In this document: positions 12,834 to 43,097 of the stretch, in pieces
How positions within the stretch are numbered: position 1 is the first letter of the stretch
Layout of the letters: each line of letters begins with the position of its first letter
Assembly: GCA_041664365.1 (NCBI GenBank)
Contig: JBAYKW010000003.1
Span: forward strand, 28,696 to 92,695
Origin: Patescibacteria group bacterium
GTDB lineage: Bacteria; Patescibacteriota; Patescibacteriia; UM-FILTER-42-10
DNA length: 64,000 nucleotides
Direction of reading: 5' to 3'
Program-made: the position numbers and the translations under genes
Notes under the pieces: model-generated
Database searches by the model: none
The model's input: the letters and a program-made list of their open reading frames with translations, nothing else
Told to the model about the DNA's origin: nothing

Positions 12834-15800
12834 ATGACTTTAATGGGAATGAATAATAGCATGCCGGAAGCAGAAAAATACGATCATCAATCGATTGAGA
12901 AAAAATGGCAGGAAAAGTGGGAGCAGGAAGGTCTTTATGAGACGAAAGACGACACCAAAAAGGACAAATTCTACTGTTTGATTGAATTTCCGTATCCGTC
13001 AGCGGAGGGATTGCACGTCGGACACCCGCGCAGTTACACGGCGCTCGACATTGTTGCGCGCAAAAAACGCATGGAAGGCAATAACGTCCTGTTTCCTATT
13101 GGTTTCGATGCATTCGGCCTGCCGACGGAAAATTATGCAATCAAAGTCAAAAAAAATCCGGCTGATATCACGGATGAGAATATCGGACGCTTCCGCAAGC
13201 AGTTAAAATCCCTGGGGCTTTCCTTTGATTGGTCCAGAGAAGTAGTAACTACTGATCCGGAATATTATAAATGGACGCAGTGGATTTTTATAAAGCTTTT
13301 CAAGGCAGGTCTGGTCTATCAAGCGGAGATGCCGATTAATTGGTGTCCTTCCTGCAAGATCGGACTAGCCAATGAAGAGGTGGTGAACGGCAAGTGCGAA
13401 CGCTGTGGTACTGAAGTAACCAAAAAGAACTTGAAACAATGGATGTTTAAAATAACTCAGTATGCCCAGCGCCTGATTGACGATCTGGATACGGTGGATT
13501 ATCTGGAAAAAATAAAATCTCAGCAGATTAACTGGATCGGCCGTTCAGAAGGCGCACGGGTTCAATTTAAATTAAAAAATTCTAAATATCACGTAGAAGT
13601 TTTTACCACCCGGCCGGACACAATATTTGGTGCAACCTATTTAGTGCTGGCACCGGAACATGAACTGGTGGAGAAATTGAAACCGGAAATTTCTAATGTC
13701 AAAGAGCTGGAGAAATATATTAATGCTTCTCAGAATAAAAGCGATTTAGAAAGAACAGATCTGGCTAAAGACAAAACCGGGGTTGAATTGAAAGGAATTA
13801 AAGCGATCAATCCGGCTAGTGGTGAAGAGATTCCGGTTTGGGTTGCGGATTATGTTTTGACGGGATACGGTACCGGCGCGATTATGGCTGTGCCGGCGCA
13901 TGATTTAAGAGATTTCGAGTTTGCTAATAGATTCAATCTAGATATAAGGTGTGTTATTAATCCAGACAAAAAAGATCTAAACCCGTCAAATATAATAAAT
14001 TCTTCTTTTAAATTCCATGAATCAAAACATCCAGAAGTCACTCTTACACTTACTCAATGGTTAGGACGTGAATGGGATCCAAAAACAGAGCATCAAGAGC
14101 TTTTGATAGGCAATAGATGTTATGTCGGCGAAGGCAAGATGATCAACTCTGGTGAGTTTAATGGTATAGATTCGCAGGCAGGAATCAAAAAAATTACAGT
14201 TTGGTTAGAAAAATTAGGTAATGGAAAAAAAGAAGTTAACTACAAACTGCGTGATTGGATATTTTCCCGTCAGCATTATTGGGGTGAGCCGATACCACTA
14301 ATTCATTGTGAACAATGCAAGAAAAAAGATAAAAAAACAGTGCTAATCATCCACGGAACCGGGGGTTACGGCAGAAATAACTGGTACGGCTGGCTGGCCG
14401 ACGAGCTGGAAAAAATGGGCCACGAGGTTATTGCTCCTGACATGCCTGAACCTTTTGAGCCTGTTTTGGAGAAATGGCTTAAAGTTTTGGATAAATATAC
14501 TGACAGGCTCAATGAAAATTCAGTGGTAATTGGACATTCTTTGGGCGGTCCTGCCGCGTTGCATTTTGTTGCCAATCTGAATAAAAAAATTGGCAAGCTT
14601 ATTTTAGTTGCTCCGACCTATCGTGATATGGACTGGGAAGATTATGCGAAAAAGCATCCCGATGATCCGGTGGAATATCAGCATAAATTCAACCAGCCGG
14701 AGATTCTCTATAAATCAGTACATAATAATACGGAAAAAATAGTATATTATTATTCTGATAATGATTTTTATATTCCGAGTACAGTTCCTGAACATTACAA
14801 AAAAGTTTTAAAGGCAGACTTCAGAATGTTAAAAAGTAGAAATCATTTTTCAATATCTCAAGGTGGAGCATTTACTTTTCCAGAAATATTTGAAGAAATA
14901 ATGGAAGGAAAAAAGACAGCGGTCGGAATCGTTCCGGTGCCGGAAAAAGATCTGCCTCTAGAACTGCCGAAAGTAAAAAATTATGAACCGACGGAAACCG
15001 GCGAATCACCTCTGGCGGGAATTACAGATTGGGTTAATACCATTTGTCCTAAATGTGGTGGTCCCGCAAAAAGAGAGACAGATACCATGCCGAACTGGGC
15101 GGGTTCCAGCTGGTATTTTCTGCGCTATACTGATCCACATAACGACAAGGAATTTGCTTCACAAAAAGCATTGAAGTACTGGCTACCGGTGGATCTGTAT
15201 AACGGTGGGATGGAACATACTACTTTGCATCTTCTGTATTCCCGATTCTGGCACAAAGCGCTTTATGATTTGAAACTGGTGCCGACTCCGGAGCCATATC
15301 AAAAAAGGATTTCCCACGGCATGGTTCTGGCGGAAGACGGAAAGAAGATGTCCAAGTCGCTGGGCAATGTGATCAATCCTGACGATGTAGTTAAAGAGTA
15401 CGGCGCGGACACTCTGCGAATGTATGAAATGTTTATGGGACCGTTTGCCGAAGCGATCCCTTGGGACACGAAGGGGATTGTTGGTGTAAGAAGATTTTTG
15501 GATAAGGTTTATTTATTAGGGGATAGGGTTAAGGGATTAGGGGTGAGGGGTGGGGGTGTTGATGAAAAGACAAAGAGTCTGCTCCACAAAACAATCAAAA
15601 AGGTAACGGAAGACATCGATGAATTCCGGTTTAATACTGCTGTTTCTGCTTTAATGATTTTGGTTAATGAAATGCAGGGAGAAAATAAAGTTGATAAAAG
15701 TACCATGGAAAAACTGTTACTGATATTATCTCCATTCGCCCCGCATTTAACTGAAGAGTTATGGATAAAGCTTGGAAACAATAAATCTATCCATTCGGAA

Positions 15801-16028
15801 TCCTGGCCGAAATTTAACGCAATACTGGTTAAAGATCAGAAAATCGAATTCGTCATACAAATCAACGGCAAACTCAAGGATAAAAGTCTGATGCCGGCTG
15901 ACGCTACAGAGGAAGATGTGATACAATATGTAGAGCAAAGTAGTAAAATTCAGAAACTGATTGCAAATAAGCAAGTCATCAAAAAAATATTTGTACCGGG
16001 CAAGCTGTTAAATATTGTGGTCAAATAA
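12834..16028 (+). CDS. leuS: Leucyl-tRNA synthetase carrying an inserted YdeN/RBBP9-type serine hydrolase domain of about 200 aa
   Basis: HIGH (HVGHPRSY), editing CP1 domain (TTRPDTIFGATYLVLAPEH), KMSKS (KKMSKSLGN). The insertion lies between IHCEQC and GIVPVPEKDLPLELP (about nt 14318-14924) and carries the IIHG..GHSLGG..SDND..NHF catalytic-triad motifs. Confidence 0.9.
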   Translation: MTLMGMNNSMPEAEKYDHQSIEKKWQEKWEQEGLYETKDDTKKDKFYCLIEFPYPSAEGLHVGHPRSYTALDIVARKKRMEGNNVLFPIGFDAFGLPTENYAIKVKKNPADITDENIGRFRKQLKSLGLSFDWSREVVTTDPEYYKWTQWIFIKLFKAGLVYQAEMPINWCPSCKIGLANEEVVNGKCERCGTEVTKKNLKQWMFKITQYAQRLIDDLDTVDYLEKIKSQQINWIGRSEGARVQFKLKNSKYHVEVFTTRPDTIFGATYLVLAPEHELVEKLKPEISNVKELEKYINASQNKSDLERTDLAKDKTGVELKGIKAINPASGEEIPVWVADYVLTGYGTGAIMAVPAHDLRDFEFANRFNLDIRCVINPDKKDLNPSNIINSSFKFHESKHPEVTLTLTQWLGREWDPKTEHQELLIGNRCYVGEGKMINSGEFNGIDSQAGIKKITVWLEKLGNGKKEVNYKLRDWIFSRQHYWGEPIPLIHCEQCKKKDKKTVLIIHGTGGYGRNNWYGWLADELEKMGHEVIAPDMPEPFEPVLEKWLKVLDKYTDRLNENSVVIGHSLGGPAALHFVANLNKKIGKLILVAPTYRDMDWEDYAKKHPDDPVEYQHKFNQPEILYKSVHNNTEKIVYYYSDNDFYIPSTVPEHYKKVLKADFRMLKSRNHFSISQGGAFTFPEIFEEIMEGKKTAVGIVPVPEKDLPLELPKVKNYEPTETGESPLAGITDWVNTICPKCGGPAKRETDTMPNWAGSSWYFLRYTDPHNDKEFASQKALKYWLPVDLYNGGMEHTTLHLLYSRFWHKALYDLKLVPTPEPYQKRISHGMVLAEDGKKMSKSLGNVINPDDVVKEYGADTLRMYEMFMGPFAEAIPWDTKGIVGVRRFLDKVYLLGDRVKGLGVRGGGVDEKTKSLLHKTIKKVTEDIDEFRFNTAVSALMILVNEMQGENKVDKSTMEKLLLILSPFAPHLTEELWIKLGNNKSIHSESWPKFNAILVKDQKIEFVIQINGKLKDKSLMPADATEEDVIQYVEQSSKIQKLIANKQVIKKIFVPGKLLNIVVK

Positions 16029-16029
16029 G

Positions 16030-17193
16030 ATGAGCGGATTTTTTTCAAAATTCTATCTGAAGAGTGAACTTTCTTCAGGGGTAATTTCGCTGTATATGAA
16101 TCGGGTGATTCTGCAGGTGGCGAACGGAATGCTCGGGCTTTTTTTGCCCGTTTTTCTTTATCTGGTTTATGACCAGAATATCTATTATGTAATTGCCAAC
16201 TTTCTCATAGGCTATCTGGCCTATTTTTTTATGTGTCCGATTGGAGCCAAAGTTATGTCCAGGATCAATCTGAAAAAGACACTCATTTTGAGTATCCCTT
16301 TCTTAGTTTTACATTATATTTGTTATTACTATTTTGAAACCAACATTCTTTTATTCACTGTTTTATCAATAGTTTTCCTGACAATTTACCGGATGTTTTA
16401 TTGGGTCCCATATCACACTGACTTTGCCGAATTCACGGATCGGCGCAACCGGGGAAAACAGATCAGCTTTCTGGCGGCAATCGCATCGCTAGTCAGCATC
16501 GCTGTTCCGTTTACCGGGGGGTTTATTTTGGACCAGTTTAATTTTCAAATACTGTTTGTAGTTGTAATTATTTTAATTTCATTGTCACTAATCCCTTTTC
16601 TTCTAACCAGGGCGGTCTATGAAAAGTACAGCTTCGGATATTTTGAAACATTCAAAAAACTTTTCCATAAAAAAAACCGGAGGATGCTTTTAGCCTATGG
16701 AGCAGATGGTGCGGAAAATTCAGTCGGAGTAGTATTGTGGCCGATCTTTGTCTGGCAAATTTTAGACGGAAAATATCTGGTGATCGGAATTATTTCCTCG
16801 ATCGTTGTATTGTTAACAATTATTATCCAGTTGAGTATGGGAAAGTTCACGGACCAGATGCGCAAGAAGAAACTGATGCGTACCGGCTCTATTCTTTATG
16901 CGGTTGGCTGGCTGATCAAAACTTTTGTTACTACCGGTTTCCAAATTTTTATCGCGTCGACATACCACAGTTTTGCAACGATTGTCATGCGCACTCCGTT
17001 TGATGCGCTAATGTACGAAAAAGCGGCTGATTCCGGTCATTATGTTGATGAATATACTGTATTGCGGGAAATGGCTATCAGTTTAGGACGGGTTATTATA
17101 CTGGGCTTTATGCTCTTGGCAATCGCCTTTGGTGGTATGGGTTTAGCTTTCCCGCTGGCTGCCTTGGTATCATTATTTATTAATGTATTATAG
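16030..17193 (+). CDS. Polytopic membrane protein of about 11-12 TM segments, probably an MFS-type transporter
   Basis: Hydropathy pattern only. The start overlaps the leuS stop. Confidence 0.5.
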   Translation: MSGFFSKFYLKSELSSGVISLYMNRVILQVANGMLGLFLPVFLYLVYDQNIYYVIANFLIGYLAYFFMCPIGAKVMSRINLKKTLILSIPFLVLHYICYYYFETNILLFTVLSIVFLTIYRMFYWVPYHTDFAEFTDRRNRGKQISFLAAIASLVSIAVPFTGGFILDQFNFQILFVVVIILISLSLIPFLLTRAVYEKYSFGYFETFKKLFHKKNRRMLLAYGADGAENSVGVVLWPIFVWQILDGKYLVIGIISSIVVLLTIIIQLSMGKFTDQMRKKKLMRTGSILYAVGWLIKTFVTTGFQIFIASTYHSFATIVMRTPFDALMYEKAADSGHYVDEYTVLREMAISLGRVIILGFMLLAIAFGGMGLAFPLAALVSLFINVL

Positions 17194-19644: not shown

Positions 19645-22600
19645 ATGCCGAGCAACCAAAAAAATCCAAAACGCCATTTTAAAAAATCAATATTTGGTGT
19701 TTTTATTTTCGTTGCTTTTTTCGTGCAGCTTTTTTTATTAGCGCCAAAACCGGCGAACGCAATTTTTGGAGTTGGGGATGTTACATTTTCCACTGTTATT
19801 GGAGATATTCCGGCAAAGTTGTGGAACGCAGTAACCTCAGCTGTAAAAAAATCAGGAGATATTGCTTATAAAAATGCACTGAAAACATTTACCCAGCAAC
19901 TTGCTTATGATGCTGCTGTTAAAATTGCCAGCGGAGCGGCGGGCCAACAACCGTTATTTAATACTAAGCCGTTTAGTAAATCAATCACAGATGCTGCCAA
20001 TGCGGCGGTCGGTGATTATCTTGACCAGATAACTACAGCAGCTTGGGGTAAAAGTCTTTGCGACATAGACCCGAAACTGAAAATTTCAATCCAGGCATCA
20101 ATCAATGTTGATTTGGGGTACGCAGGACCGCCAAGGCAGGCAAAGTGTACACTTTCCTCAATCACGAGCAGGTTGGGTAAGAAGAGCCTGAATGATTTTT
20201 ATGAAGTGGATGCGAAACTGGGTTTTGCCATTAAAGGCGTGGATCCTGCCCAGCTTTCCCAAGCTCTACTCAAAGGATTCCCGGAAATGTTCGGCGAGGA
20301 CCAGGCGGAAATTTCCCAGTACCTTTCGGTCTATAGAGGGGCAATGACTGAAAAGGAAAAAGCGGAAAAAGCGGAAGAAGCAAAACAGGCGAAGGATTTT
20401 AATAATCTAGTTAGTGCGATTACCGGTGATACTAAAACACCGGCGGCACAGGTTGAGGCAGTGGCGGAAGTTGCATTAACGGAAACAACAACACCTGAAA
20501 AAGTAACAACCGGTTCTATAATTGCTGACATGATCGGTGTGTTTAGTAATACTTTGGTTAAGAAGTATATGGAATTTATCTTGGTTAAAGGTTTAAACCC
20601 GAATGCGGACAGCACCGGATCAGTTCAGGGTAAATTCGGCAGGACATCGGGCATCGCTGCGGCGGAAGCAAAATTTGCATCATTCAACCAGCCTTCACTT
20701 GGTGCCGGAGGATCCGTGGACATTTTAAATACACTATCGACCTGCCCGACGGATTTCGCCGAGCCGGAAAACTGCGCGATTGATCCTAGTTTCCGAACAG
20801 CGGTAGAACAGCAGCTTCGTTTGGAAGAAGCGATTGAATCAGGCTACATTAATGGTGACAAGCCTTTCGGTTATGGAGATGGTGGAGCCCAGTTGAATTA
20901 CCAGGAGGGTTATCCATACCGCAGTTTGGTCCTGCTTAGAAGGTATCGGGTGATCCCGGTAAGTTGGGAACTGGCTGCATCGTACGTCAGAGAATTCGGG
21001 GGAGGAACTAAAACCCTGAATGAATTAATCAGAGAGTACGACGATCCAGCATCACAGTACTATCAGTTAATTGATCCGGATTGGGTTTTGAAAGCACCGG
21101 CCACGATGTGTGTCAATAGCGGTTACAATGAAACGTTTCTTTTTGATGAATATATTGATGAAGACGGAATAAATGAGACGCCAAAAATCCGCCAAATCCA
21201 ACGAAACACATCATGCGTTGATGATCAGTCCTGTATTGTAGAAGACGGCAATGGTAACTGCCAGCAGTATGGCTACTGTACCAAAGAAGATCCGATTTGG
21301 CGGTTTAACGGTGAATCGTGCCCTGATTATTATAATACTTGTACAACCTATACCAACAGACAGGGTCAGCCCGCTTCATATCTGGCGAAGACATTGGACT
21401 TTAACGGCTGTTCTGCGGATAATGTCGGTTGTCAGTGGTATTGTTCGGAATATAATACTACCGATGAAAGATGGGAATGTTATTATAATGATGATGGCGC
21501 TGCCGGCACGGAGGACTATGGCTATTGGAATTATGATCCGAATTCTCCGGGCGGTGGAATTGCAGAGCCAGCCTTGGCCTCAAGCTGGTTATCGCATCTG
21601 AATGCCAATGCGGAGAGTTGTACTGCCGGAGCGGACGGATGTAGTGAATTTGTTAGGACCGACCATGGCTCCAACTTAATCAGCAATGCCAGTTTTGAAT
21701 ATTATACAGGCACCCCCGACGATGGTAATGCAGATATTTTCACTAATTCATGGTCCGCTGTAAACGGAGCAGTTACCGAAGCGGATACGATCACTTCGCT
21801 GGGTGTTTCCCCATATTCAGACGTAACGGTTATGAATCTGCATTCAGCTGCTGTGCCTGGACCTTATATAATCTATGGAATTGATGCCGGGTCACCTGTC
21901 AGAAACAGGATATTTACGTATTCTTTTTATGCAATGCGAGATCCGGATCTGATTAATCCTGCGTGTACAGATACCGCTCGATTAGAACTATTACAGGCGG
22001 TCGGCCCTGCGTTGGCCTCAACAACTATAGATAATCTGAATGATCAATGGCAGAGATATCAAGTCACATATGCACATCCTGATTCATTCAATCCTGCCGT
22101 TTCCTATTTACTATTAAACATTGTTCCTGACACCGGCTGTAATATAATTATAGACGCCGCCAAAATAGAAGAAGCGGAAAGTGCCGGCCAGTATGAAAAT
22201 TATGGAGCGATAAATAGAGTTTATTTAACCGGAGAGCGGGAAAGTTGTAATCCGGATGATGTCGGGTGCCAGAACTATACACCGCTTGCCGGTGGTTCCG
22301 TGATCCCTGGGCAGGTTAGACCACAAGATCAGTGTGATAGTGCAGATGTCGGTTGCAAAGCTTTTGAGGAGGTCAAACTAACCAACGTTGTACCGCGCCC
22401 GGATAATATTGAACGTTCCGGCATGTATTGTTATGGCGGGGCAAACCAGGGCAATGCGTGTTTAGTTGCCGGTGATTGTCCGGCAGGATACTGCCTCCCG
22501 GCTATATCATTTGTTCCGGACACAGGCGCGCAATGTTCCGCAGCCTATGTTGGTTGTGAAGAATTTACGAATTTGGATGAAGTTTCGGCCGGCGGAGAAG

Positions 22601-25600
22601 GAAAGGAATATTATTCTTTTCTGAAACAATGCGTTACGCCAGCCGATACGGACATTGCTTCATATTATGCCTGGGAAGGTGACGCGGTAGCCGGATACCA
22701 GTTAAGAGCATTCCGACTGAAACGCAGTGATGTTGGCGGTGCATTTCCGGCCCCTTGTACTCATTTGGAAGTCGGACCGACACTCCCGCTGGATTGTGAA
22801 GATTCATTAAACACTGTTGATGATTGTACTAGTGAGTACGGTATAAATCCTGATTGTACACAATTCTTTGATTCAAATTTAAATATATTTTATCGGTATA
22901 AAACGCAAACTATATCAGTAACAGAAGACTGCCACCCGGAGAGAAACAGTATAGACAACCTGACGTATTATGGATCGCCAAGCGAAAGCCGGTCATGTCC
23001 GGCACAATTTGCCGGGTGCAGAGAATACCTGGGAAATGCGGGATACAATTACCGACAGGTTAATTATGATGATTTTGAAGACGGTACCAATCAGGGTTGG
23101 AGTGCAGGTGTTGTAAGTCCTGAATCAGTTATGCTTAACGGTCATTCACTGAACATAGCGTCACCAAATCCAGTGAATAAGGAACCGCTTGATGAAACAC
23201 TGGAAAATAAAAAGACATATATGTTGAGTTTCTGGGCAAAAGGTACCAGCGTAGCCCCGACTATTCGGTTTAACCACGCATTAAATAATAATGGTTATTT
23301 TGCTGATGCGGATCCGGCAACATTCCCCGCTTCAGTAGTTTTGACTAGTGATTGGAATAAATATACACTTGGTCCGGTGAATATTGATACTAATGACTAC
23401 GTTGGTAATGTCGTGCCGGATGGTTTGGTTATTGAGGGCTTAGCCGGTGTTAATGACTATTTTGATAACATCGAACTGATTGAGACATCCAGCAGTCAAT
23501 ACCTGATCCGCGGGTCGTTTAGAACCTGTTATGGATCGGAAAACTGCGAGGCGTATTCTGATTGGGAAAATGTAACTCACAATCTAAAATCATTCACAAA
23601 ATTGTGTTCGGAAGACACGGTGGGATGTGAAGCACTAATTGATACACAGAATAACAGTAATCCGTTTACACAGGTATACGGCAGTGGAGTGCTTAGCGCC
23701 GAAACTATTCCGATTGATCAAGTGGTTACACTGATTAATGATCCGGATAAATATTGTGCTGCCGAGGATAAAGGGTGTAAAAAACTCGGTAAACCAATCA
23801 TTGATGCGAATAACAATCTTGTTTCTTATGAAGATACCTATTTAAAGGACAACCCGGAAGATTATGATGATATCTGGTGTGGTCAAACCGAGGTAGGTTG
23901 TGAGGAATACGGCTTTTCAGATAGCGGTGGTAAAACATTTTTCAAACAACCAAACGGCCGGACGTGTGAATACAAGCAACTACTGGGGACATATGAATTT
24001 AATTGGTATGTTGTCGGCACCGAAGAGGTCTGCGATCAGACACCAACTCCGCCTAATCCGGCGATTCCAGCATTTGTTTGTACGGAAGGAGCACTAGGCG
24101 GACCGCCGGCAGGGACAATTTGTGATCCGGAAAATCCAGTCGCCTGTACAGGATCAAGCACCTGCATACCGTGGGTCGGTTTGTGCGACTCGAAAGCTAA
24201 CGGATGCACGGCGTATAGCGATCCGATGGATCCGGTTGGCTGTCAGCCAAACTGCCCGTTTGAAAACGGAGCGTTTTATGATGAAAATTGCGTGGAGACG
24301 CCGGGCGGACTTCCGGGATGTGCGACATACTACAATATAAAATCAACAGTTGATTCAACCAGTTGTAACGGTGTGGTCAACGAAGAAAAGGGATGTAAGC
24401 TGTTTAGTGACACGCAACAATCTCTCAACTATTCAGCGGATTTAAGTCCGGATGGTATAAAAAATTATTGTGATCTTACTGATCCATCAACTTATGGAAA
24501 TGAATGCGATGTTGATGCTGATTGCGGAACCGGAATTTGTTTCCCGAATCCGGAATTTGGAGCGCCGGTATTGGGCAGAGACGGCACTTGCGTCGGCGGG
24601 ACGAACCCGGGTGATCCTTGCACTAATGCAGCGGATTGTCTTGATGCAGGTGTCTGTGATCCATATGCCATTACTGCCGAGAGTCCGTCGCTTGATTCCA
24701 ACACTGTATTGAAGGTGAAAAGAGACCGGGTTTGTGAAGAATGGCTATATTGTAAAACTTCATTTGAAGTGGACGACGAAACGGATACCGACGGTGACGG
24801 CAAAACAAAAGAAGATGTTTGTTTTGAAATCGGTCTGTGCGATGAGGCTGGGTCAAACGGTTCCTGTGCCAGCACGATTGATACGGCGCCGGTCAATGTA
24901 ACCGGCGATACCCCGGCGTATCCTCTGGATGAATTCCAGAACCTTTCCGGTTTTGTCAGCGCCGGTCTGCATTATGGCTGTCGAACCGACCATTCTGTGG
25001 CTTGCACGGTTGCCACCGAAGCTACTGCCTGCGCCGGCTATGGGGATGAATGCGATATTATTGAAGGATACTATCCTTATTCGGAGATGTATGAAGTAGG
25101 GTTGGGCGGAGCGGTAACCAAGGATTTGGTACGTTTTGGCAATTTTGAATCTGACGCATTATCCCAGTTTATGGTTTGTAGTTCAGATATGGGGAATAAA
25201 GATTCTTCTTGTATTATAAATGAACACTGTATACCAGATGAGGATTCGCCAACTGATCCTGATTGTCTTGATGTAAATGATGAACAAACATGGACAACTC
25301 TTTACCCGAATATTGGAATGGACAGTGCTATTTCAGTTGTTGAAGGAGATACGATCAAAGATGGAAATGCGGCACTCGATGAAAACAACTATCTGCTTTA
25401 TACGGCAGGATCACTGGGGGTGTGCGATAGTGACTCAACTAACGAAGGAACGCTATGTACCCTAGCCGGTACTGAATGTACTGGCGGGGGACTTTGTTCG
25501 TTCACTGGATTGGGTGTGAAGACCAGCTTGGGAACGAATATATTAAATAAAGCTGAATATATTGCCAGTCTTGATTTCCGATTTATCAATATGCCTGAAG

Positions 25601-28600
25601 CAGGGCAGGAACAAATTTCAATCTCTCTTGCACAAATTGATAGTTTCACCGGCAATATTGTTGGAGAAAATATTTTAGGCTATTTCGATGGTTCAACCGG
25701 CTGGACGGAGCAAATTCTGAAACCGGTGGTGGTTACGGGTATACCGGATGAAAATGCGGAAACTTTCCTTTTGATTAGAAGTATGAGTGGTAATGTTCCC
25801 TTTGCTATCGATAATGTTTCTATGAAGCCGGCACTGACAGTGAAAGCATCTGAATCAGCCGGAATTCGTGGTGATTATTACACTCTTATCTATGATAATT
25901 CAGGTATTCCCGGTCTGTCATATAGTTATTCAGGTACAACTACATATACTGGAACTGATCTTCAAATCAATGAATATGAATATTGTGTCCATGGTGATTA
26001 TGCATATCTACCACCACTTTGTACAGTACATAATGTACCTACAGGGCAAAGATGGTCTACTCCAAATGAGACTACGACATGGAATGGCGGAATCCTAATT
26101 GACTCCAGCGGTTTCCATACGGTATTTGTGAATATTAACGACGGTTTCAGGCTCTATGTTGATGATATGGTTACACCAATATTTGACCAATATGGCGGTG
26201 GTGTTGCAACTCAAGGGTATATGTTTAGCGGATATTTTACCGCCGGGTGGCATCCTATAAAACTCGAGTGGATTAATAATGGAGATGACGGCGGTGTGCA
26301 GCTAGGGAGTGTGGCCGGTACTTATACAAACAATGATTGTAATGGAACCATTCTTCCTAATTTCTGCCAGCGCTATTTTGACGGTGTTGATCAAGGACCA
26401 ATCGGAGCGGATATTGCTGATGGTGCTCGCGATTTCCCGATACCTTTGAATTATATAATCGGTCCAAGCCATCTGACAACACAACTTGATAGGGTATTCG
26501 GCACATATTTAGGAACGCATGTCAGTGAGTATCTGGATTACGATGCCGCGAGCATGGGCCCGCACTTGATTGACGTAACTGGTGCAGATGAGAAAATAGC
26601 GGTGCGCTGGACCGGAAAACTGCTAGTGGAAACAGCCGGTAATCATCAGTTCCAACTGCAACACGACGACGGAGTTAGGTTCTTTATAGATGACCTCGAT
26701 ACGCCAATCCCAGCTTCAAATGTGTGGAGTGATGGGAGTGGTACGGTTACATTTACTGTCAATGGACTTGATACCGGATCGCATCCAATAAAAATAGAAT
26801 ATTACCAAAATGAAGGAAATTCCAGTTTAAGTTTCTTATGGCAACCACCGGGAGCACCGGGGATGACAGTCGTTCCGACAACAAATTTATCAACGACAGA
26901 TGGTGATCAACAATATATCAAACGCTCCTGCCGTGCTTATCCTAGGGAGGATTCGGAAGTCTGCCAATATACCAACAGCGACCTGGTGCAGTTCAACGGC
27001 TGGCAGGGGTACTGTATTGAGACAGACCCGACCAACCCGAATAAATGTATCACCTGGTGGCCGGTAGATGCGATCTCCGGCGAGTCCAGTGTATTCGGTA
27101 CAGTGGAACCGGCCGGTTATCAAGGCAGGAGACCTCTTTATATGTGCGTGGAGTCAACTGGTAATTATAATGAAACAAGTACGTTTAATGACTTAATGGT
27201 TAATGGCGCGCAGTCATCTTGTCCGGATGATGAAGAGGGAGACATTAACATGCCGGTTTCAGAAATGCTCGGTCAGTTTTATGGGTATCGTCATCCGATA
27301 AAAACAAATTGGGCAAATATTCAGGCTGGTGCGGATAGTGATTGTGATGGTGGAGAAGATACAGCCTGTGGCATGGTAGAGAATCATGCTCCTTGTAGAG
27401 TAATTGGTGGAGGAACAAGCGCGAATCTCTATGGCTTTTGCGGCTGTACTGGTGGGGCAACAATGAGTTATTTAGTTGTCGATGCTTTAGAACAGGATAA
27501 ATTCTATGAATGGGAAATAGACCGAATTGAATGGACGGCACAAAGATCAAGTCATGGCGATTGGCCACAGGGTCAAACAACTTGGATCGCAAATAAAGCA
27601 AATGATTGGACAGTGCAGGGAGATGAAAGTAACTGGTTCAAAGATAAAGACGCATCGATTGAATGCGGTTCTCAAAACTGTTTCAATTTCAAAGTAAATT
27701 TTGACGGTAATCAATTGTTAGACAGTTTCAGAGTGCATATGGTTGATGGAAGTCAAGCTTGGGGTGGTATGTGGGTAACAGGTACGATATATTTGCGTGA
27801 TGTTTGTAAGGAAGTCGCTAAAGTTGTCAGTTCAACCGACGACAGTGCATGGGCGCAAAGAACAGCATCTGCCAGCTCATATATCATTCAGGACCTTTTA
27901 TATTCTTACAGTTCTGACGCTGCACCGTTTGGCGCAATGGTTGCCGGAGCAGGTGCTGATCCGGGTGAATCGTGGGGCAAAGATTCTTCTGGTCTACTAC
28001 CGGTATTACTTGAAGGACTTGATAGTTCACCATCGCCTGCAGTAAACAACACCAGGCTGGGGCAGTCGTACAGCTGTAGTGCAAGATGTAATAATAGCCC
28101 CACTACTTATTGTGAAGTAAACGCGGATTGTCCTCTAGGTGGTTTATGCGATCGTACCAGTTGTGTGCCAAAAGTTTGTTTTGGTGGAGCTAACGATTCA
28201 GTACATCGCAGTGTACAATATTCCTGTTCTTCGGATGCGGATTGTCAGGGAACAGAAGATGATCGCGCAGTCTGTGTAGGAGTTGGTTTATGTAGTGGTG
28301 ATCAGACGATTGAATGTACGACTGATACAGATTGCGGAACAGCAGGTTCATGTGTTGGCGCTGATGCGAAGCTGAAGGGTGATGGGCCAGTAAATACAGG
28401 AAATGCATGGGCTCTAGAAAGGTTACAAAGAATATTTGCCAATGTCTATGGATCATGGCGCTGGGATGATGCAACTGGTTCTTATGTTGATGTCCCTGAT
28501 TTTGGCGGTTCGTGGAGACAGGTATGGAATGATAAATTCGATAATATGGTTTTATGTAATTTAAACGGAACAGGACCGCGCCCAATTTGGCCAGGACCAG

Positions 28601-29031
28601 AAACTGACTACTGCGCGATTTTACCGAAGGTTAGTAATATACTGGTCAACGGAACAACCGGCGATGTGGTGATGAATGGTGGAGGTTCAGTTACACTGTC
28701 GTTTACCAGTTTTGTTGATGCTGAGCAGGAGGAGTTGAAGAATATAATTGTGGACTGGGGTGATGGTTCAACGCCAACCTCTATTGTGTGGAATGGCGCG
28801 CCGAAATCTGATCCGAGTCAACCGCATCTATTCTCACATACCTATGATGATGTTGTTGGTCCAGGGGCGGGGGAATACCAGATTGAAATCATGCTGAAAG
28901 ACAATTGGGGTTTCTGCAACAATGCTGTTTTGCCTCCGGGTCCAAATTATAGACAATGTGATATTAATGGATTATTTCCTTACCATGAGTATACAGAATA
29001 TGACGGTATAATCCGTGTCTACCCAAGCTAA
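19645..29031 (+). CDS. Giant (3128 aa) secreted Cys-rich surface protein with two PA14 domains
   Basis: Signal/anchor FGVFIFVAFFVQLFLLAPKPANA. More than 150 Cys in CxxC/CxxxxC arrays. PA14-like segments at about nt 25861-26290 (GIRGDYY..RLYVDDMV..WHPIKLEWINNGDDG) and about 26560-26860 (VRWTGKLL..HQFQLQHDDGVRFFIDD..HPIKIEYYQNEG..LWQPPG). Confidence 0.7.
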   Translation: MPSNQKNPKRHFKKSIFGVFIFVAFFVQLFLLAPKPANAIFGVGDVTFSTVIGDIPAKLWNAVTSAVKKSGDIAYKNALKTFTQQLAYDAAVKIASGAAGQQPLFNTKPFSKSITDAANAAVGDYLDQITTAAWGKSLCDIDPKLKISIQASINVDLGYAGPPRQAKCTLSSITSRLGKKSLNDFYEVDAKLGFAIKGVDPAQLSQALLKGFPEMFGEDQAEISQYLSVYRGAMTEKEKAEKAEEAKQAKDFNNLVSAITGDTKTPAAQVEAVAEVALTETTTPEKVTTGSIIADMIGVFSNTLVKKYMEFILVKGLNPNADSTGSVQGKFGRTSGIAAAEAKFASFNQPSLGAGGSVDILNTLSTCPTDFAEPENCAIDPSFRTAVEQQLRLEEAIESGYINGDKPFGYGDGGAQLNYQEGYPYRSLVLLRRYRVIPVSWELAASYVREFGGGTKTLNELIREYDDPASQYYQLIDPDWVLKAPATMCVNSGYNETFLFDEYIDEDGINETPKIRQIQRNTSCVDDQSCIVEDGNGNCQQYGYCTKEDPIWRFNGESCPDYYNTCTTYTNRQGQPASYLAKTLDFNGCSADNVGCQWYCSEYNTTDERWECYYNDDGAAGTEDYGYWNYDPNSPGGGIAEPALASSWLSHLNANAESCTAGADGCSEFVRTDHGSNLISNASFEYYTGTPDDGNADIFTNSWSAVNGAVTEADTITSLGVSPYSDVTVMNLHSAAVPGPYIIYGIDAGSPVRNRIFTYSFYAMRDPDLINPACTDTARLELLQAVGPALASTTIDNLNDQWQRYQVTYAHPDSFNPAVSYLLLNIVPDTGCNIIIDAAKIEEAESAGQYENYGAINRVYLTGERESCNPDDVGCQNYTPLAGGSVIPGQVRPQDQCDSADVGCKAFEEVKLTNVVPRPDNIERSGMYCYGGANQGNACLVAGDCPAGYCLPAISFVPDTGAQCSAAYVGCEEFTNLDEVSAGGEGKEYYSFLKQCVTPADTDIASYYAWEGDAVAGYQLRAFRLKRSDVGGAFPAPCTHLEVGPTLPLDCEDSLNTVDDCTSEYGINPDCTQFFDSNLNIFYRYKTQTISVTEDCHPERNSIDNLTYYGSPSESRSCPAQFAGCREYLGNAGYNYRQVNYDDFEDGTNQGWSAGVVSPESVMLNGHSLNIASPNPVNKEPLDETLENKKTYMLSFWAKGTSVAPTIRFNHALNNNGYFADADPATFPASVVLTSDWNKYTLGPVNIDTNDYVGNVVPDGLVIEGLAGVNDYFDNIELIETSSSQYLIRGSFRTCYGSENCEAYSDWENVTHNLKSFTKLCSEDTVGCEALIDTQNNSNPFTQVYGSGVLSAETIPIDQVVTLINDPDKYCAAEDKGCKKLGKPIIDANNNLVSYEDTYLKDNPEDYDDIWCGQTEVGCEEYGFSDSGGKTFFKQPNGRTCEYKQLLGTYEFNWYVVGTEEVCDQTPTPPNPAIPAFVCTEGALGGPPAGTICDPENPVACTGSSTCIPWVGLCDSKANGCTAYSDPMDPVGCQPNCPFENGAFYDENCVETPGGLPGCATYYNIKSTVDSTSCNGVVNEEKGCKLFSDTQQSLNYSADLSPDGIKNYCDLTDPSTYGNECDVDADCGTGICFPNPEFGAPVLGRDGTCVGGTNPGDPCTNAADCLDAGVCDPYAITAESPSLDSNTVLKVKRDRVCEEWLYCKTSFEVDDETDTDGDGKTKEDVCFEIGLCDEAGSNGSCASTIDTAPVNVTGDTPAYPLDEFQNLSGFVSAGLHYGCRTDHSVACTVATEATACAGYGDECDIIEGYYPYSEMYEVGLGGAVTKDLVRFGNFESDALSQFMVCSSDMGNKDSSCIINEHCIPDEDSPTDPDCLDVNDEQTWTTLYPNIGMDSAISVVEGDTIKDGNAALDENNYLLYTAGSLGVCDSDSTNEGTLCTLAGTECTGGGLCSFTGLGVKTSLGTNILNKAEYIASLDFRFINMPEAGQEQISISLAQIDSFTGNIVGENILGYFDGSTGWTEQILKPVVVTGIPDENAETFLLIRSMSGNVPFAIDNVSMKPALTVKASESAGIRGDYYTLIYDNSGIPGLSYSYSGTTTYTGTDLQINEYEYCVHGDYAYLPPLCTVHNVPTGQRWSTPNETTTWNGGILIDSSGFHTVFVNINDGFRLYVDDMVTPIFDQYGGGVATQGYMFSGYFTAGWHPIKLEWINNGDDGGVQLGSVAGTYTNNDCNGTILPNFCQRYFDGVDQGPIGADIADGARDFPIPLNYIIGPSHLTTQLDRVFGTYLGTHVSEYLDYDAASMGPHLIDVTGADEKIAVRWTGKLLVETAGNHQFQLQHDDGVRFFIDDLDTPIPASNVWSDGSGTVTFTVNGLDTGSHPIKIEYYQNEGNSSLSFLWQPPGAPGMTVVPTTNLSTTDGDQQYIKRSCRAYPREDSEVCQYTNSDLVQFNGWQGYCIETDPTNPNKCITWWPVDAISGESSVFGTVEPAGYQGRRPLYMCVESTGNYNETSTFNDLMVNGAQSSCPDDEEGDINMPVSEMLGQFYGYRHPIKTNWANIQAGADSDCDGGEDTACGMVENHAPCRVIGGGTSANLYGFCGCTGGATMSYLVVDALEQDKFYEWEIDRIEWTAQRSSHGDWPQGQTTWIANKANDWTVQGDESNWFKDKDASIECGSQNCFNFKVNFDGNQLLDSFRVHMVDGSQAWGGMWVTGTIYLRDVCKEVAKVVSSTDDSAWAQRTASASSYIIQDLLYSYSSDAAPFGAMVAGAGADPGESWGKDSSGLLPVLLEGLDSSPSPAVNNTRLGQSYSCSARCNNSPTTYCEVNADCPLGGLCDRTSCVPKVCFGGANDSVHRSVQYSCSSDADCQGTEDDRAVCVGVGLCSGDQTIECTTDTDCGTAGSCVGADAKLKGDGPVNTGNAWALERLQRIFANVYGSWRWDDATGSYVDVPDFGGSWRQVWNDKFDNMVLCNLNGTGPRPIWPGPETDYCAILPKVSNILVNGTTGDVVMNGGGSVTLSFTSFVDAEQEELKNIIVDWGDGSTPTSIVWNGAPKSDPSQPHLFSHTYDDVVGPGAGEYQIEIMLKDNWGFCNNAVLPPGPNYRQCDINGLFPYHEYTEYDGIIRVYPS

Positions 29032-40547: not shown

Positions 40548-43097
40548 ATGCGTAATGATATCAACGCATTTAGATTAGGTAACATAATGACTAAAGTAGT
40601 TGTTATTTTTGTTTTTAGTGCCGCCGTTTTTTCGGCGATTTTTTATTTAGGGCAAAGCGGAAAGTTAGTGGAAAAAACAAAGGCAACTGACTCATATGCT
40701 GAGATTATCCAGCCCTATGCAGGGAGTCAGGTTATTGCACATACTGATGCCACAGAAGATTCAACCTATGAGTGGAAAGTGAATGAGGTATCCCAGCAGA
40801 GCGGAATAGTACCGACTAAATTCCTTGCGCATTTTAATGGTAGCCTCCAAACTGCAGCGGGTGAGAATCCAGCCACGAGTGAGTCGATTGCTTATGAGGA
40901 TGTAAAATTCGGCCAGGGGATGGTCGGTACGGCTGATTATCCGATGACCGGCAATTTTGATGTCACAAAGGGTACGCTGGATCTTTGGCTGACACTAAAA
41001 AAACCGCTGGACGATCCAGATTTTGACAGTAGTCCGTATTTTCTTTATTACCATAATTCCGGTACGAGTGATTCTTTCATGGTGAATGTCCATAGTTCAA
41101 ATGTTTTAAGCTTTACAATGTATGATTCTTCAGACGGTTGGGAGCTGGCTGTTCAGGTCAATACAAGCAACTACACAATTCCGGTGGGAGTGCCTTTTCA
41201 CTTTGTAGCAACATGGTCTGTCGCGGAAAAGACAGCAAAATTATACCTGAATGGTGAACAGGTATCACGCAGAGATTATGAGGCGGACGAGCGCTTTCCG
41301 GAAATCGTTGTCGGCGCGGAAAATGTTAGGATTGGAAACACAAACGTAGTGGTTGACGAAGTCAGGTTTTTGAATGATGTATTATCAACAGACCAGATAA
41401 AAGATTCTTATGTCCGTGGCATACCGTATTCAGAAAGTGATGTTTATTATAATGGTACTATCAGTCAGGGCGATACGGTTGAGCTTACTGTTACGGATGG
41501 CGGAATTCCGCTTTCAGACAGTGCAACTGTCGCTGGACAAAAAATTACTGTAACCAGCCCGGTCGGTTATTTTGTACCGAATACTGATAGCTTAACAGTT
41601 AGTTTTAATACCGCTACCGCGATGACCTGCCGTTACGGCACAGTGCCGGATGCGTATGATAATCTGCCGTTGATTGCGGAAGGTGCGGAAACGTTACATA
41701 CGATTACATACGCGGTGGACAGTATAATTGAACAATTCCCAGTGGCGATCAAATGCCAGGGAACAAGTGATGATGCTGATGATTATGGATTCTTCCGCCG
41801 TTACCGTGTATTGCCTGAGCCGAAACTGACCTATCCTAAAATCTCAAAACTTTGGTGGGGTAATGCAGTGTTGGATTCAGAAATTCCATATCTTGCTAAA
41901 TTTGATTTTGTTAATACGTCAAAAAGTAATGTTACAAAACCTGGAATGATTAAACAACTCAAAACGTTAAACCCGGACATAGTTACACTTGTCTATCAGG
42001 ATATGATTGGCGTCCAGGATTATCCCGGCGTGGCATATCAGTCTGAATTGGACCGCGTGTCGGAGTCTTGGCGTCTTCAAAGTTCTGAAGTCCCGGGTGA
42101 TTATTGCCGAAACCTTTATTTTCCCGATAATGATCCTTACAACCTGTATGTAAATGCTCCTTTTAATGAACAGAGCGCAAATCATACGGAGAAGGATCTG
42201 ATAGATCGCCTTTCCTATTTTGATGGTATTTGGTGGGATGTGGTCGGACCGGATTTTTGGTTTTTGTATGATTTTACCGGAACCCCGCCCAGCTTTATTG
42301 AAAATTGTGATTTTGATAATGATGGAATTGATGAAGATTTAAACGTGACTGAAGATCGTGTTAAAGCATTACAAATCTGGGCTGACGGTATTCATGATAT
42401 AATGTTGCGTTCACGCCAAAAATTGGGGCAAGATGTTCTGATGGCCGGCAATGGTGATGCATCTGTGCATTCCGACTTCAACGGAAAAAATGTTGAACAT
42501 TTTTTCTCCCCCAGCAGATTTTCATATTACTTTGATCCGAATAACCTGCAGGGTTTTCTCTATTGGCAAGCACATTCAAAAGAGCCGAGAATGAATGAGA
42601 ATTTGTATGAGATTCTCTATCCATATGGAACTTCGACATTTTATAAATATATGCGATACGGCTTAACCGCAAGCCTTCTGGCCGGTGTTTATTTTGATCC
42701 TAACTTGGGATCTGACAATGAGAACAATTCATGGTGGTTTGATGAATACTGGATCGATATCGCAACAGGCAGGCCGACTGACATTCTTGAAACTGGTAGC
42801 GGATATCTCGGTGAACCGCTAGGGGACTTTTATATAGTACAATCAAATGTGTACCGTCGTGACTTTGAAAACGGGATAGTCCTGCTTAATAATACTTCCG
42901 GATCATCTACCGTTAACCTCGGTGGAACATACCGGTATCTGGATGCGACGAACGGCGGACAGGACCCAGTCGCTAATCCGGGCGGTGAAACAGATTCAGT
43001 TACCATGAGTTGGTACGATGGGAGAATATTACTTAATCCTTTACCGCCGCAAGACAGTACACCACCGGGAACAATTAACGATTTGAATGCTACTTAA
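40548..43097 (+). CDS. Membrane-anchored ConA-like/LamG-domain protein, with a large C-terminal domain that may be glycoside-hydrolase-like; copy 1
   Basis: TM segment MTKVVVIFVFSAAVFSAIFYL. LamG-like segment DVTKGTLDLWL...FHFVATWS...LYLNGEQV...DEVRF. The C-terminus is conserved with copy 2. Confidence 0.6.
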   Translation: MRNDINAFRLGNIMTKVVVIFVFSAAVFSAIFYLGQSGKLVEKTKATDSYAEIIQPYAGSQVIAHTDATEDSTYEWKVNEVSQQSGIVPTKFLAHFNGSLQTAAGENPATSESIAYEDVKFGQGMVGTADYPMTGNFDVTKGTLDLWLTLKKPLDDPDFDSSPYFLYYHNSGTSDSFMVNVHSSNVLSFTMYDSSDGWELAVQVNTSNYTIPVGVPFHFVATWSVAEKTAKLYLNGEQVSRRDYEADERFPEIVVGAENVRIGNTNVVVDEVRFLNDVLSTDQIKDSYVRGIPYSESDVYYNGTISQGDTVELTVTDGGIPLSDSATVAGQKITVTSPVGYFVPNTDSLTVSFNTATAMTCRYGTVPDAYDNLPLIAEGAETLHTITYAVDSIIEQFPVAIKCQGTSDDADDYGFFRRYRVLPEPKLTYPKISKLWWGNAVLDSEIPYLAKFDFVNTSKSNVTKPGMIKQLKTLNPDIVTLVYQDMIGVQDYPGVAYQSELDRVSESWRLQSSEVPGDYCRNLYFPDNDPYNLYVNAPFNEQSANHTEKDLIDRLSYFDGIWWDVVGPDFWFLYDFTGTPPSFIENCDFDNDGIDEDLNVTEDRVKALQIWADGIHDIMLRSRQKLGQDVLMAGNGDASVHSDFNGKNVEHFFSPSRFSYYFDPNNLQGFLYWQAHSKEPRMNENLYEILYPYGTSTFYKYMRYGLTASLLAGVYFDPNLGSDNENNSWWFDEYWIDIATGRPTDILETGSGYLGEPLGDFYIVQSNVYRRDFENGIVLLNNTSGSSTVNLGGTYRYLDATNGGQDPVANPGGETDSVTMSWYDGRILLNPLPPQDSTPPGTINDLNAT

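Follow-up and report, generated by a model that had tools for sequence, protein, structure and literature searches.

Bacterial leucyl-tRNA synthetase (LeuRS) is itself built by nesting, in that its connective polypeptide 1 (CP1) is a hydrolytic domain set within the Rossmann fold. Its four-cysteine zinc module ZN-2 is specific to bacterial and mitochondrial LeuRS, and replacing the cysteines in pairs by alanine abolishes aminoacylation of a bacterial-type LeuRS (PMC4005665). Here we describe the leuS gene of a 64,000-nucleotide stretch of DNA from a Patescibacteria group bacterium (GCA_041664365.1, contig JBAYKW010000003.1; the whole stretch is called the window below), in which, as read from the sequence, a complete serine hydrolase of the YdeN/RBBP9 type lies inside ZN-2, and one polypeptide therefore holds two intact catalytic machineries, a LeuRS and a PF06821 hydrolase. 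The principle is the same as that of CP1, although in fold the insert has no relation to CP1 or to the other known editing domains of aminoacyl-tRNA synthetases (aaRS).

The aaRS are among the most conserved of proteins, and the cataloguing of their accessory domains goes back decades. Accessory enzyme domains occur in several of them, as in YbaK/ProX fused to ProRS and in the AlaX-type domains, and to our knowledge such additions are terminal fusions or long-established editing modules. An aaRS with a second catalytic domain is likewise curated as NCBIfam NF040702 ('isoleucine--tRNA ligase, N-acetyltransferase domain-containing'), which is likened to the present case by its description. The module of the window differs from these accessory fusions in being nested in a zinc knuckle, in belonging to a non-editing family, and in varying in site and lineage between close relatives. 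Rearranged LeuRS are also known, such as the split alpha/beta enzyme of Aquifex aeolicus and the CP1-less enzyme of Mycoplasma mobile (3ZIU). Both show that the connective polypeptide tolerates large rearrangement, but they represent the splitting or deletion of LeuRS parts, whereas the window gene represents the capture of a foreign enzyme. Accessory-domain aaRS are thus already known, and what is new is a non-editing catalytic domain nested in ZN-2 that changes site and lineage between orthologues. Literature searches pairing LeuRS or aaRS with Patescibacteria or candidate phyla radiation (CPR), hydrolase, NUDIX, PF06821 or ZN-2 returned no account of this architecture, PMC8662615 contained nothing on it, and no prior description of a catalytic domain nested in ZN-2 was found. 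Public records carry automatic names only, e.g., 'leucyl-tRNA synthetase/predicted alpha/beta hydrolase family esterase', and some module-bearing LeuRS appear there under the name 'alpha/beta fold hydrolase', or under that of a 'non-canonical purine NTP pyrophosphatase'.

The nested hydrolase and its host synthetase

The leuS open reading frame (ORF) is uninterrupted, and its expected product is a single bacterial-type LeuRS polypeptide that scores 1017.1 bits against the NCBIfam model TIGR00396 (leuS_bact; cut-off 548.4). Pfam recognizes tRNA-synt_1 in separate stretches of this product, with PF06821 (Ser_hydrolase) lying between two of them. Alignment with the LeuRS of Thermus thermophilus (1h3n) pairs query residues 428-495 with T. 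thermophilus residues 375-442 and query residues 696-834 with residues 441-580, and the insert therefore sits exactly between Cys442 and Gly443 of ZN-2, which confirms the insertion boundaries proposed from the letters alone. The borders are also clean in comparison with insert-free close relatives, reading HCExC, then 202 aa, then G(I/V)VPVPEKDLP, and the N-terminal linker of the insert is rich in lysine (KKKDKK). The earlier sequence-only reading of this DNA had given the interval as 14318-14924; the end stands, while the start moves by one nucleotide to 14319, since the Cys495 codon ends at nucleotide 14318, and translation of the interval from 14318 is out of frame and runs into many stop codons. 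That reading also held that the second CxxC of the knuckle is retained downstream, and it is, as Cys738 and Cys741 of CPKCGG. With the insert removed, the two cysteine pairs of ZN-2 lie 41 residues apart, vs. 42 in T. thermophilus.

Profile, sequence, and predicted fold agree on the identity of the insert, bearing out the proposal of a complete YdeN/RBBP9-type hydrolase in the zinc knuckle. The PF06821 profile matches residues 503-677 (E 5e-18; 66-70 bits against a threshold of 22) over profile positions 1-159 of 172, and the insert searched alone against PDB sequences finds Bacillus subtilis YdeN (1uxo, E 1.5e-15) and human RBBP9 (E 3e-10). An AlphaFold2 (AF2) model of the insert alone is of high confidence, with a predicted local distance difference test score (pLDDT) of 95.2 and a predicted template modelling score (pTM) of 0.92, and its best Foldseek match in the PDB is again 1uxo, with template modelling (TM) scores of 0.83/0.90 and a root-mean-square deviation of 2.0 Å, while the RBBP9 match reaches a TM of ∼0.75-0.84. 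In the full-length AF2 model (pLDDT 85.7, pTM 0.79) most 10-residue blocks of the insert have a pLDDT of 87-97, with two dips to 63-69, and the LeuRS part superposes on the T. thermophilus and Escherichia coli enzymes with target TM scores of 0.81-0.85. The insert thus belongs to the same family as YdeN (1UXO) and RBBP9 (2QS9, 7OEX) and shares their GHSxG-Asp-His triad, HG motif, and conserved positions; compared with these free-standing proteins it has no termini of its own, both ends being joined to an essential synthetase. Because identity to the structurally characterized PF06821 members is just 22-25% over the fold alignments, their substrates cannot be transferred to it.

The motifs quoted in the sequence-only reading (IIHGTGG, NNWYGWLADEL, GHSLGG, SDNDFYIP, and NHFS among them) all occur where it had placed them, NNWYGWLADEL at residues 515-525, and the intact catalytic triad that it claimed is recovered as Ser569, Asp644, and His671 in an alignment of 90 hydrolase domains, of which 80 come from LeuRS proteins and the other 10 are free-standing. 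Their counterparts in RBBP9 are Ser75, Asp138, and His165, the match being provisional in the C-terminal part of RBBP9. Across the 90 domains Ser569 is invariant (100%), His671 is kept in 98%, the exceptions being gaps, and the residues of the oxyanion-hole motif are kept in 98% (His507) and 92% (Gly508). Asp644 is present in 84%, and the remaining subfamily has its Asp two or three positions earlier. This degree of conservation is the pattern expected of an active enzyme under selection. [quoted passage not shown] The region is accordingly a PF06821 hydrolase with its triad, and not the normal ZN or leucine-specific segment that had been named as the finding that would overturn this identification.

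The host enzyme is predicted to be complete and editing-competent. It shares all catalytic, zinc, and editing motifs, together with the predicted fold, with the LeuRS of T. thermophilus (1H3N/2BYT) and E. coli (4AQ7), and it differs from bacterial LeuRS in the 202-aa alpha/beta hydrolase in ZN-2, in a 43-aa extension after CP1, and in having no leucine-specific domain. The last of these is missing where query residue 834 joins 838 and T. thermophilus has residues 580-637 (window ∼15333-15347); it is also missing from all CPR LeuRS cores of ∼800 aa, and the domain (T. thermophilus 577-634) is typical of the LeuRS family, neither universal nor defining. CP1 follows ZN-1, as in bacterial-type LeuRS, and retains an intact T-rich motif (TTRPDT, aa 258-263) together with the AHD aspartate (Asp357). 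Among 121 LeuRS, comprising the window protein and its 120 best relatives, conservation is ∼100% for the HIGH and KMSKS signatures, for the eight cysteines of ZN-1 and ZN-2 (four in each), and for the T-rich motif and AHD aspartate of CP1. It is as high in the 57 LeuRS whose ZN-2 holds a hydrolase as in the 28 that carry other inserts and the 36 that carry none. Since the CP1 residues are conserved in all 121, the hydrolase does not compensate for a dead editing site, and its role as a substitute for a decayed CP1 is ruled out.

The arrangement is not a product of assembly. The order of genes in the leuS region recurs in a JGI metagenome contig (L001), in contigs from ENA and Logan (L002 and L003), and in L004, which represents a species in GTDB; the ZN-2 hydrolase junction is found in L002, L003, and L004. 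Because independent assemblies with the gene order of the window carry the same junction, the assembly chimera that the first interpretation had named as a possible refutation is excluded.

Insertion sites and exchange of modules among relatives

The relatives were found by a full-length protein search, and their insertions were mapped on a profile of the insert-free LeuRS core (∼800 aa); a word-indexed search with the insert and short flanks, which has low sensitivity, gave 10 free-standing hydrolases and no LeuRS. Wherever a source is named, the 120 best relatives come from Patescibacteria (Kerfeld-, Falkow-, Magasanik-, and Paceibacteria). A hydrolase module occupies ZN-2 in 57 of the 121 proteins, at exactly this position in ∼52 of them and within a few core positions in a few more, while 17 proteins carry a hydrolase just after CP1 and five just before it. 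The description of the architecture as highly unusual consequently holds relative to textbook organisms and fails among the nearest LeuRS, where the same ZN-2 insertion is common. Some LeuRS carry two hydrolase copies (P0023, P0033, and P0069), P0132 has a tandem pair at the pre-CP1 site, and in a 270-aa protein (P0197) the hydrolase lies near the N-terminus, between LeuRS core positions 27 and 29, as either a further insertion site or a truncated gene.

Other enzymes are hosted in the same manner. NUDIX modules are present in ∼27 LeuRS at the hot spots of the hydrolase, and RdgB/HAM1 modules in 15, one of them above the TIGR00042 equivalog cut-off; HAD (HAD_2), PD-(D/E)XK (PDDEXK_3), and aminoglycoside-nucleotidyltransferase-like (PF10706) domains also occur. 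Inserts with no Pfam match include one of 132 aa at the same ZN-2 position, one of 182 aa at position 517, and others of 173-175 aa at the C-terminus. In relatives P0011-P0130 the hot spots fall at core profile positions ∼145, 212-241, 364-384, 398-440, 516-519, and 634-643 and at the C-terminus, and the largest relative (P0121, 1554 aa) has four inserts. The window gene therefore belongs to a large set of Patescibacteria LeuRS in which surface loops of the connective-polypeptide region accommodate small hydrolase modules. Its own 43-aa extension, which is common to P0017 and P0021 and is modelled with a confidence below 50 at residues 393-407, stands at a site where relatives carry NUDIX or hydrolase modules, and could be a remnant or a landing pad.

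The histories of module and host disagree. The LeuRS cores nearest to that of the window, P0014 (86.6% identical) and P0015 (84.7%), have their hydrolase before CP1 and an uninterrupted ZN-2, and their module is just 35% identical to that of the window, even though the genes around P0014 (L001) are arranged as in the window. Four proteins with cores 77-80% identical (P0011-13 and P0018) carry at ZN-2 a module 69-75% identical to the window's, whereas P0017, with a core 72.8% identical, has at ZN-2 a module only 32% identical, which best matches post-CP1 modules (53-55%) and a free-standing protein (49%). In P0019, P0020, and P0028 the cores are 58-60% and the modules 61-63% identical. A sliding comparison places the window core nearest to P0014 and P0015 everywhere but at core positions ∼321-440 (window ∼13850-14318), a stretch adjoining the insert in which P0011 and P0012, both ZN-2 carriers, and also P0021 are nearer, and this mosaic similarity beside the insert suggests recombination or co-adaptation. 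Discordance between module and host points to repeated capture, replacement, or cassette exchange, and modules have, as judged from these comparisons, been gained, lost, swapped, and relocated even between orthologous leuS genes. A neighbour-joining tree of the 90 domains, which share 25-40% identity, resolves too weakly for insertions to be counted, and pairwise identities and synteny were used in its place.

Relatives of the module outside LeuRS place this family in a wider setting. When the insert was scanned against the full set of 1.84 billion representative proteins, 2362 hits resulted. The best 150 comprise ∼25 LeuRS or fragments, 103 free-standing proteins of ∼190 aa, and a remainder in which the hydrolase is fused to an enzyme of another kind (PBP1, inositol monophosphatase, a peptidase of the S51 or S9/S33 type, a methyltransferase, or NUDIX). 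In a metagenome scan, which could not be seeded with a broad free-standing hydrolase alignment because of its divergence, 74 of 80 loci were free-standing with no leuS in their flanks, which rules out a general adjacency of the family to leuS; adjacency is confined to the closest relatives of nested copies. In one locus (L008, 3132-6014) the genes for Ham1, for NUDIX, for an alpha/beta hydrolase, and for a protein that fuses NUDIX to Ser_hydrolase stand in a single run on one strand with almost no spacing, and NUDIX genes occur in the fetched flanks (up to 6 kb) of five of the 74 free-standing loci, four within ∼1 kb. The L008 run and these neighbours indicate that the LeuRS-nested families also keep company outside LeuRS; no HAM1 neighbour was present in the flanks of the 74 loci, and the hydrolase-NUDIX link is modest. 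The embedded copies share their conserved positions with 105 free-standing copies, the positions enriched in embedded copies being just K500, L504, L589, and D600, which are in the linker or poorly defined, and the comparison of the two groups gives no clear LeuRS-specific pocket signature.

Function of the nested hydrolase

We favour, at about an even chance, the reading in which the hydrolase is an autonomous accessory enzyme that does the ordinary job of its family and uses LeuRS as a chassis, and in which it is not an editing replacement. The hydrolase would fold as a separate globule on short linkers, and in consequence the four ZN-2 cysteines could still close the knuckle and LeuRS would charge and proofread tRNA-Leu normally. 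The second active site would work on its own with the ordinary chemistry of the family, probably on a small acyl or alpha-aminoacyl ester or amide by homology with RBBP9, this being the best guess because RBBP9 is the only characterized relative and has that chemistry. The LeuRS chassis would supply constitutive expression, retention, and tethering. Some benefit of a place on or beside LeuRS is likely, because the association with leuS is non-random, though precise active-site geometry would probably not be required; a precise cis mechanism is made less likely by the presence of at least four attachment points, the same conserved positions as in free-standing copies, an intact CP1, and RdgB-type house-cleaning enzymes hosted in the same way.

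Several observations pull away from a mere chassis. At least three distinct hydrolase lineages are found in LeuRS cores at least 72% identical, and no other aaRS is recognizable as host among the best 150 of the 2362 hits. The closest free-standing relative of the P0014 module (P0142, 48% identical) is encoded 79 nt upstream of an insert-free leuS, which is followed by Sua5 and MFS (major facilitator superfamily) genes as in the window (L009, 439-3525), and this pair shows unfused what is nested elsewhere. The P0017 module has P0165 as its closest free-standing relative, and the gene next to that of P0165 ends in an anticodon-binding domain of class Ia. The isoelectric point of embedded copies is a little higher than that of free-standing ones, at 6.4 vs. 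5.7 (p = 0.002), a small difference, and Asp600 is present in 68% of embedded vs. 9% of free-standing copies. RBBP9, moreover, needs its free alpha-amine on a hydrophobic aminoacyl group (PMC8866121), and the chemistry that it needs is the chemistry that LeuRS handles. Taken together, these points weigh against the favoured reading, as the specificity of the leuS link appears to exceed what a merely permissive scaffold would give.

It is this specific and recurrent link, which extends to the leuS-adjacent gene of L009, that keeps LeuRS-coupled roles alive. The most direct of them would be quality control, in which the hydrolase clears mischarged or modified aminoacyl-tRNA-Leu, or misactivated aminoacyl-adenylates after their release from the synthetic site, by cis editing or by tethered trans-editing. 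We regard it as unlikely, even though the cleavage of aminoacyl derivatives by RBBP9 (PMC8866121), the slightly more basic character of embedded copies, and the location of the pre-CP1, post-CP1, and ZN-2 sites alike in the connective-polypeptide region between the Rossmann halves would all suit it. The CP1 editing residues, conserved in 121 of 121 LeuRS, leave no gap to fill; the position of the module is not fixed and close relatives have none; nearly all conserved positions are common to embedded and free-standing copies, with no clear LeuRS-specific pocket; and the equivalent of the Glu108 anchor is not clearly conserved. The fold, too, is unrelated to known editing domains. Searches of Pfam, NCBIfam, and the PDB found just alpha/beta-hydrolases, with no homology of the insert to the editing or trans-editing folds CP1, INS/YbaK, AlaX, and DTD, a result that weakens the claim that the insert is an editing domain and leaves unaffected the claim that it could deacylate. 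In a broader version, Patescibacteria LeuRS would be a modular chassis with five or more loops open to repeated capture and exchange of enzyme cassettes, among them the serine hydrolase, NUDIX, RdgB/HAM1, HAD, and nucleotidyltransferase-like modules, all acting on by-products or poisons of aminoacylation, and their targets would be misactivated aminoacyl-adenylates or esters, diadenosine tetraphosphate (Ap4A), non-canonical ATP analogues, or adenylate-mimic antibiotics; we hold this to be rather doubtful.

The remaining explanations are less probable still. The hydrolase could be a target-embedded antidote which, with the NUDIX, nucleotidyltransferase-like, and HAD modules, destroys inhibitors directed at LeuRS or reverses modifications of Leu-tRNA made by toxins, in analogy with MccF (a serine peptidase) and MccE (a GNAT acetyltransferase), which detoxify aminoacyl-adenylate mimics. 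Patchy and fast-changing presence and position among orthologues are typical of fluctuating selection, one relative has the aminoglycoside-nucleotidyltransferase-like module, and NCBIfam curates an IleRS-with-GNAT family, but the insert has no homology to MccF, PADLOC models matched no family (0) and so identified no known anti-phage defence protein, the RdgB/HAM1 and NUDIX modules are ordinary house-cleaning enzymes, and we know of no LeuRS inhibitor from these habitats, so that this reading appears improbable. A similarly low probability attaches to amino-acid supply, in which an RBBP9-like aminopeptidase would free N-terminal hydrophobic residues from scavenged peptides beside the LeuRS pocket. 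The aminopeptidase activity of RBBP9, the fusion of family members to Peptidase_S51 and S9/S33-type peptidases, and the auxotrophy of CPR bacteria would fit, whereas the NUDIX and HAM1 modules, hosted likewise, are left unexplained, no reason is offered for LeuRS as the only host, and at 22-25% identity to RBBP9 the specificity residues are not conserved. That no functional nested enzyme exists at all, the insert being a chimera, a pseudogene, an intein-like element, or a dead spacer, is very improbable. The third-codon-position G+C content (GC3) of the insert is somewhat below that of the rest of leuS (0.35 vs. 0.42), which would agree with such an origin; yet the frame is uninterrupted, independent assemblies carry the same junction, the triad is conserved over 80 embedded copies, and the predicted fold is of high confidence. 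An intein is ruled out, as Pfam finds no Hint domain and the junctions are wrong, with a KKKDKK start and a KTAV end followed by Gly (K...V/G). Direct repeats or a target-site duplication are absent at the borders of the insert, where there are A-rich lysine codons only.

The consequences depend on which of these accounts is true. If the modules act on LeuRS substrates, they would amount to translational quality control, or to immunity against antibiotics, of a new kind, and the broader cassette model, if true, would add a new on-enzyme quality-control layer or a target-embedded immunity distinct from CP1 editing. If, as under the favoured autonomous-enzyme reading, they are independent house-cleaners, ultra-small genomes would strikingly retain accessory functions by placing these within an essential gene, and the relatives would offer a natural map of insertion-tolerant LeuRS sites of use for protein engineering. 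In either case, such insertions can affect LeuRS as a phylogenetic marker and mislead automatic annotation.

Coordinates, gene neighbourhood, and other features of the window

The features of the gene are collected in Table 1. The true start of leuS may be Met10 (nt 12861), since homologues have just ∼5 residues ahead of the conserved KY(D/N)H.

Table 1. Features of the leuS gene and of the hydrolase nested in it, in window coordinates.
Feature	Position	Strand	Basis or remark
leuS ORF	12834..16028	+	1064 aa; TIGR00396, Pfam, T. thermophilus alignment
HIGH signature (HVGH, aa 61-64)	13014..13025	+	both His invariant among relatives
ZN-1 zinc module CPSC...CERC (Cys171/174/188/191)	13344..13406	+	motif and conservation among relatives
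CP1 editing domain (PF13603, aa 233-385, E 6e-64)	13530..13988	+	Pfam
Lineage-specific 43-aa extension at post-CP1 insertion hot spot (aa 385-427)	13986..14114	+	T. thermophilus comparison
ZN-2 knuckle, first half, IHCEQC (aa 490-495; Cys492, Cys495)	14301..14318	+	motif, T. thermophilus alignment
Nested YdeN/RBBP9-type serine hydrolase (aa 496-697, 202 aa)	14319..14924	+	Pfam, alignment, AF2 model
Oxyanion-hole HG motif His507-Gly508 (in IIHGTGG, aa 505-511)	14352..14357	+	90-domain alignment
Nucleophile Ser569 in GHSLGG elbow (aa 567-572, nt 14532-14549)	14538..14540	+	equivalent to RBBP9 Ser75
Catalytic acid Asp644 in SDNDFYIP (aa 641-648)	14763..14765	+	equivalent to RBBP9 Asp138
Catalytic His671 in NHFS (aa 670-673)	14844..14846	+	equivalent to RBBP9 His165
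Resumption of LeuRS, GIVPVPEKDLP (aa 698-708), T. thermophilus Gly443 onward	14925..14957	+	motif, T. thermophilus alignment
ZN-2 knuckle, second half, CPKCGG (aa 738-743; Cys738, Cys741)	15045..15062	+	motif, relatives
KMSKS signature (aa 838-842)	15345..15359	+	motif, conserved among relatives
Anticodon-binding domain (PF08264, aa 915-1027), then C-terminal tRNA-binding domain	15576..15914	+	Pfam, T. thermophilus alignment

In the window the genes run in the order RsmI-like methylase, LysM-M23 peptidase, leuS, MFS transporter, Sua5, KsgA, and a giant PA14 protein. The ORF of the MFS transporter (16015..17193), next downstream, begins before leuS ends (overlap at 16015-16028), which suggests co-transcription with MFS, Sua5, and KsgA. 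The species representative L004 (CAZVMV010000012.1) bears the GTDB title 'uncultured Gammaproteobacteria' and encodes a CPR-type LeuRS with a ZN-2 hydrolase and a LysM-M23 neighbour; the bin is probably mislabelled.

Further features lie apart from leuS. A 450-aa ORF at 1372-2724 has a guanylate kinase domain just at residues 5-186, its C-terminal ∼260 aa being without a Pfam match, and tandem 849-aa paralogues at 40548-43097 and 43204-45753 carry Laminin_G_3 and GHL15 (putative glycosyl hydrolase) domains. The 3128-aa ORF at 19645-29031 is probably a giant surface protein, because the syntenic genes of L001 and L002 carry PA14 domains.

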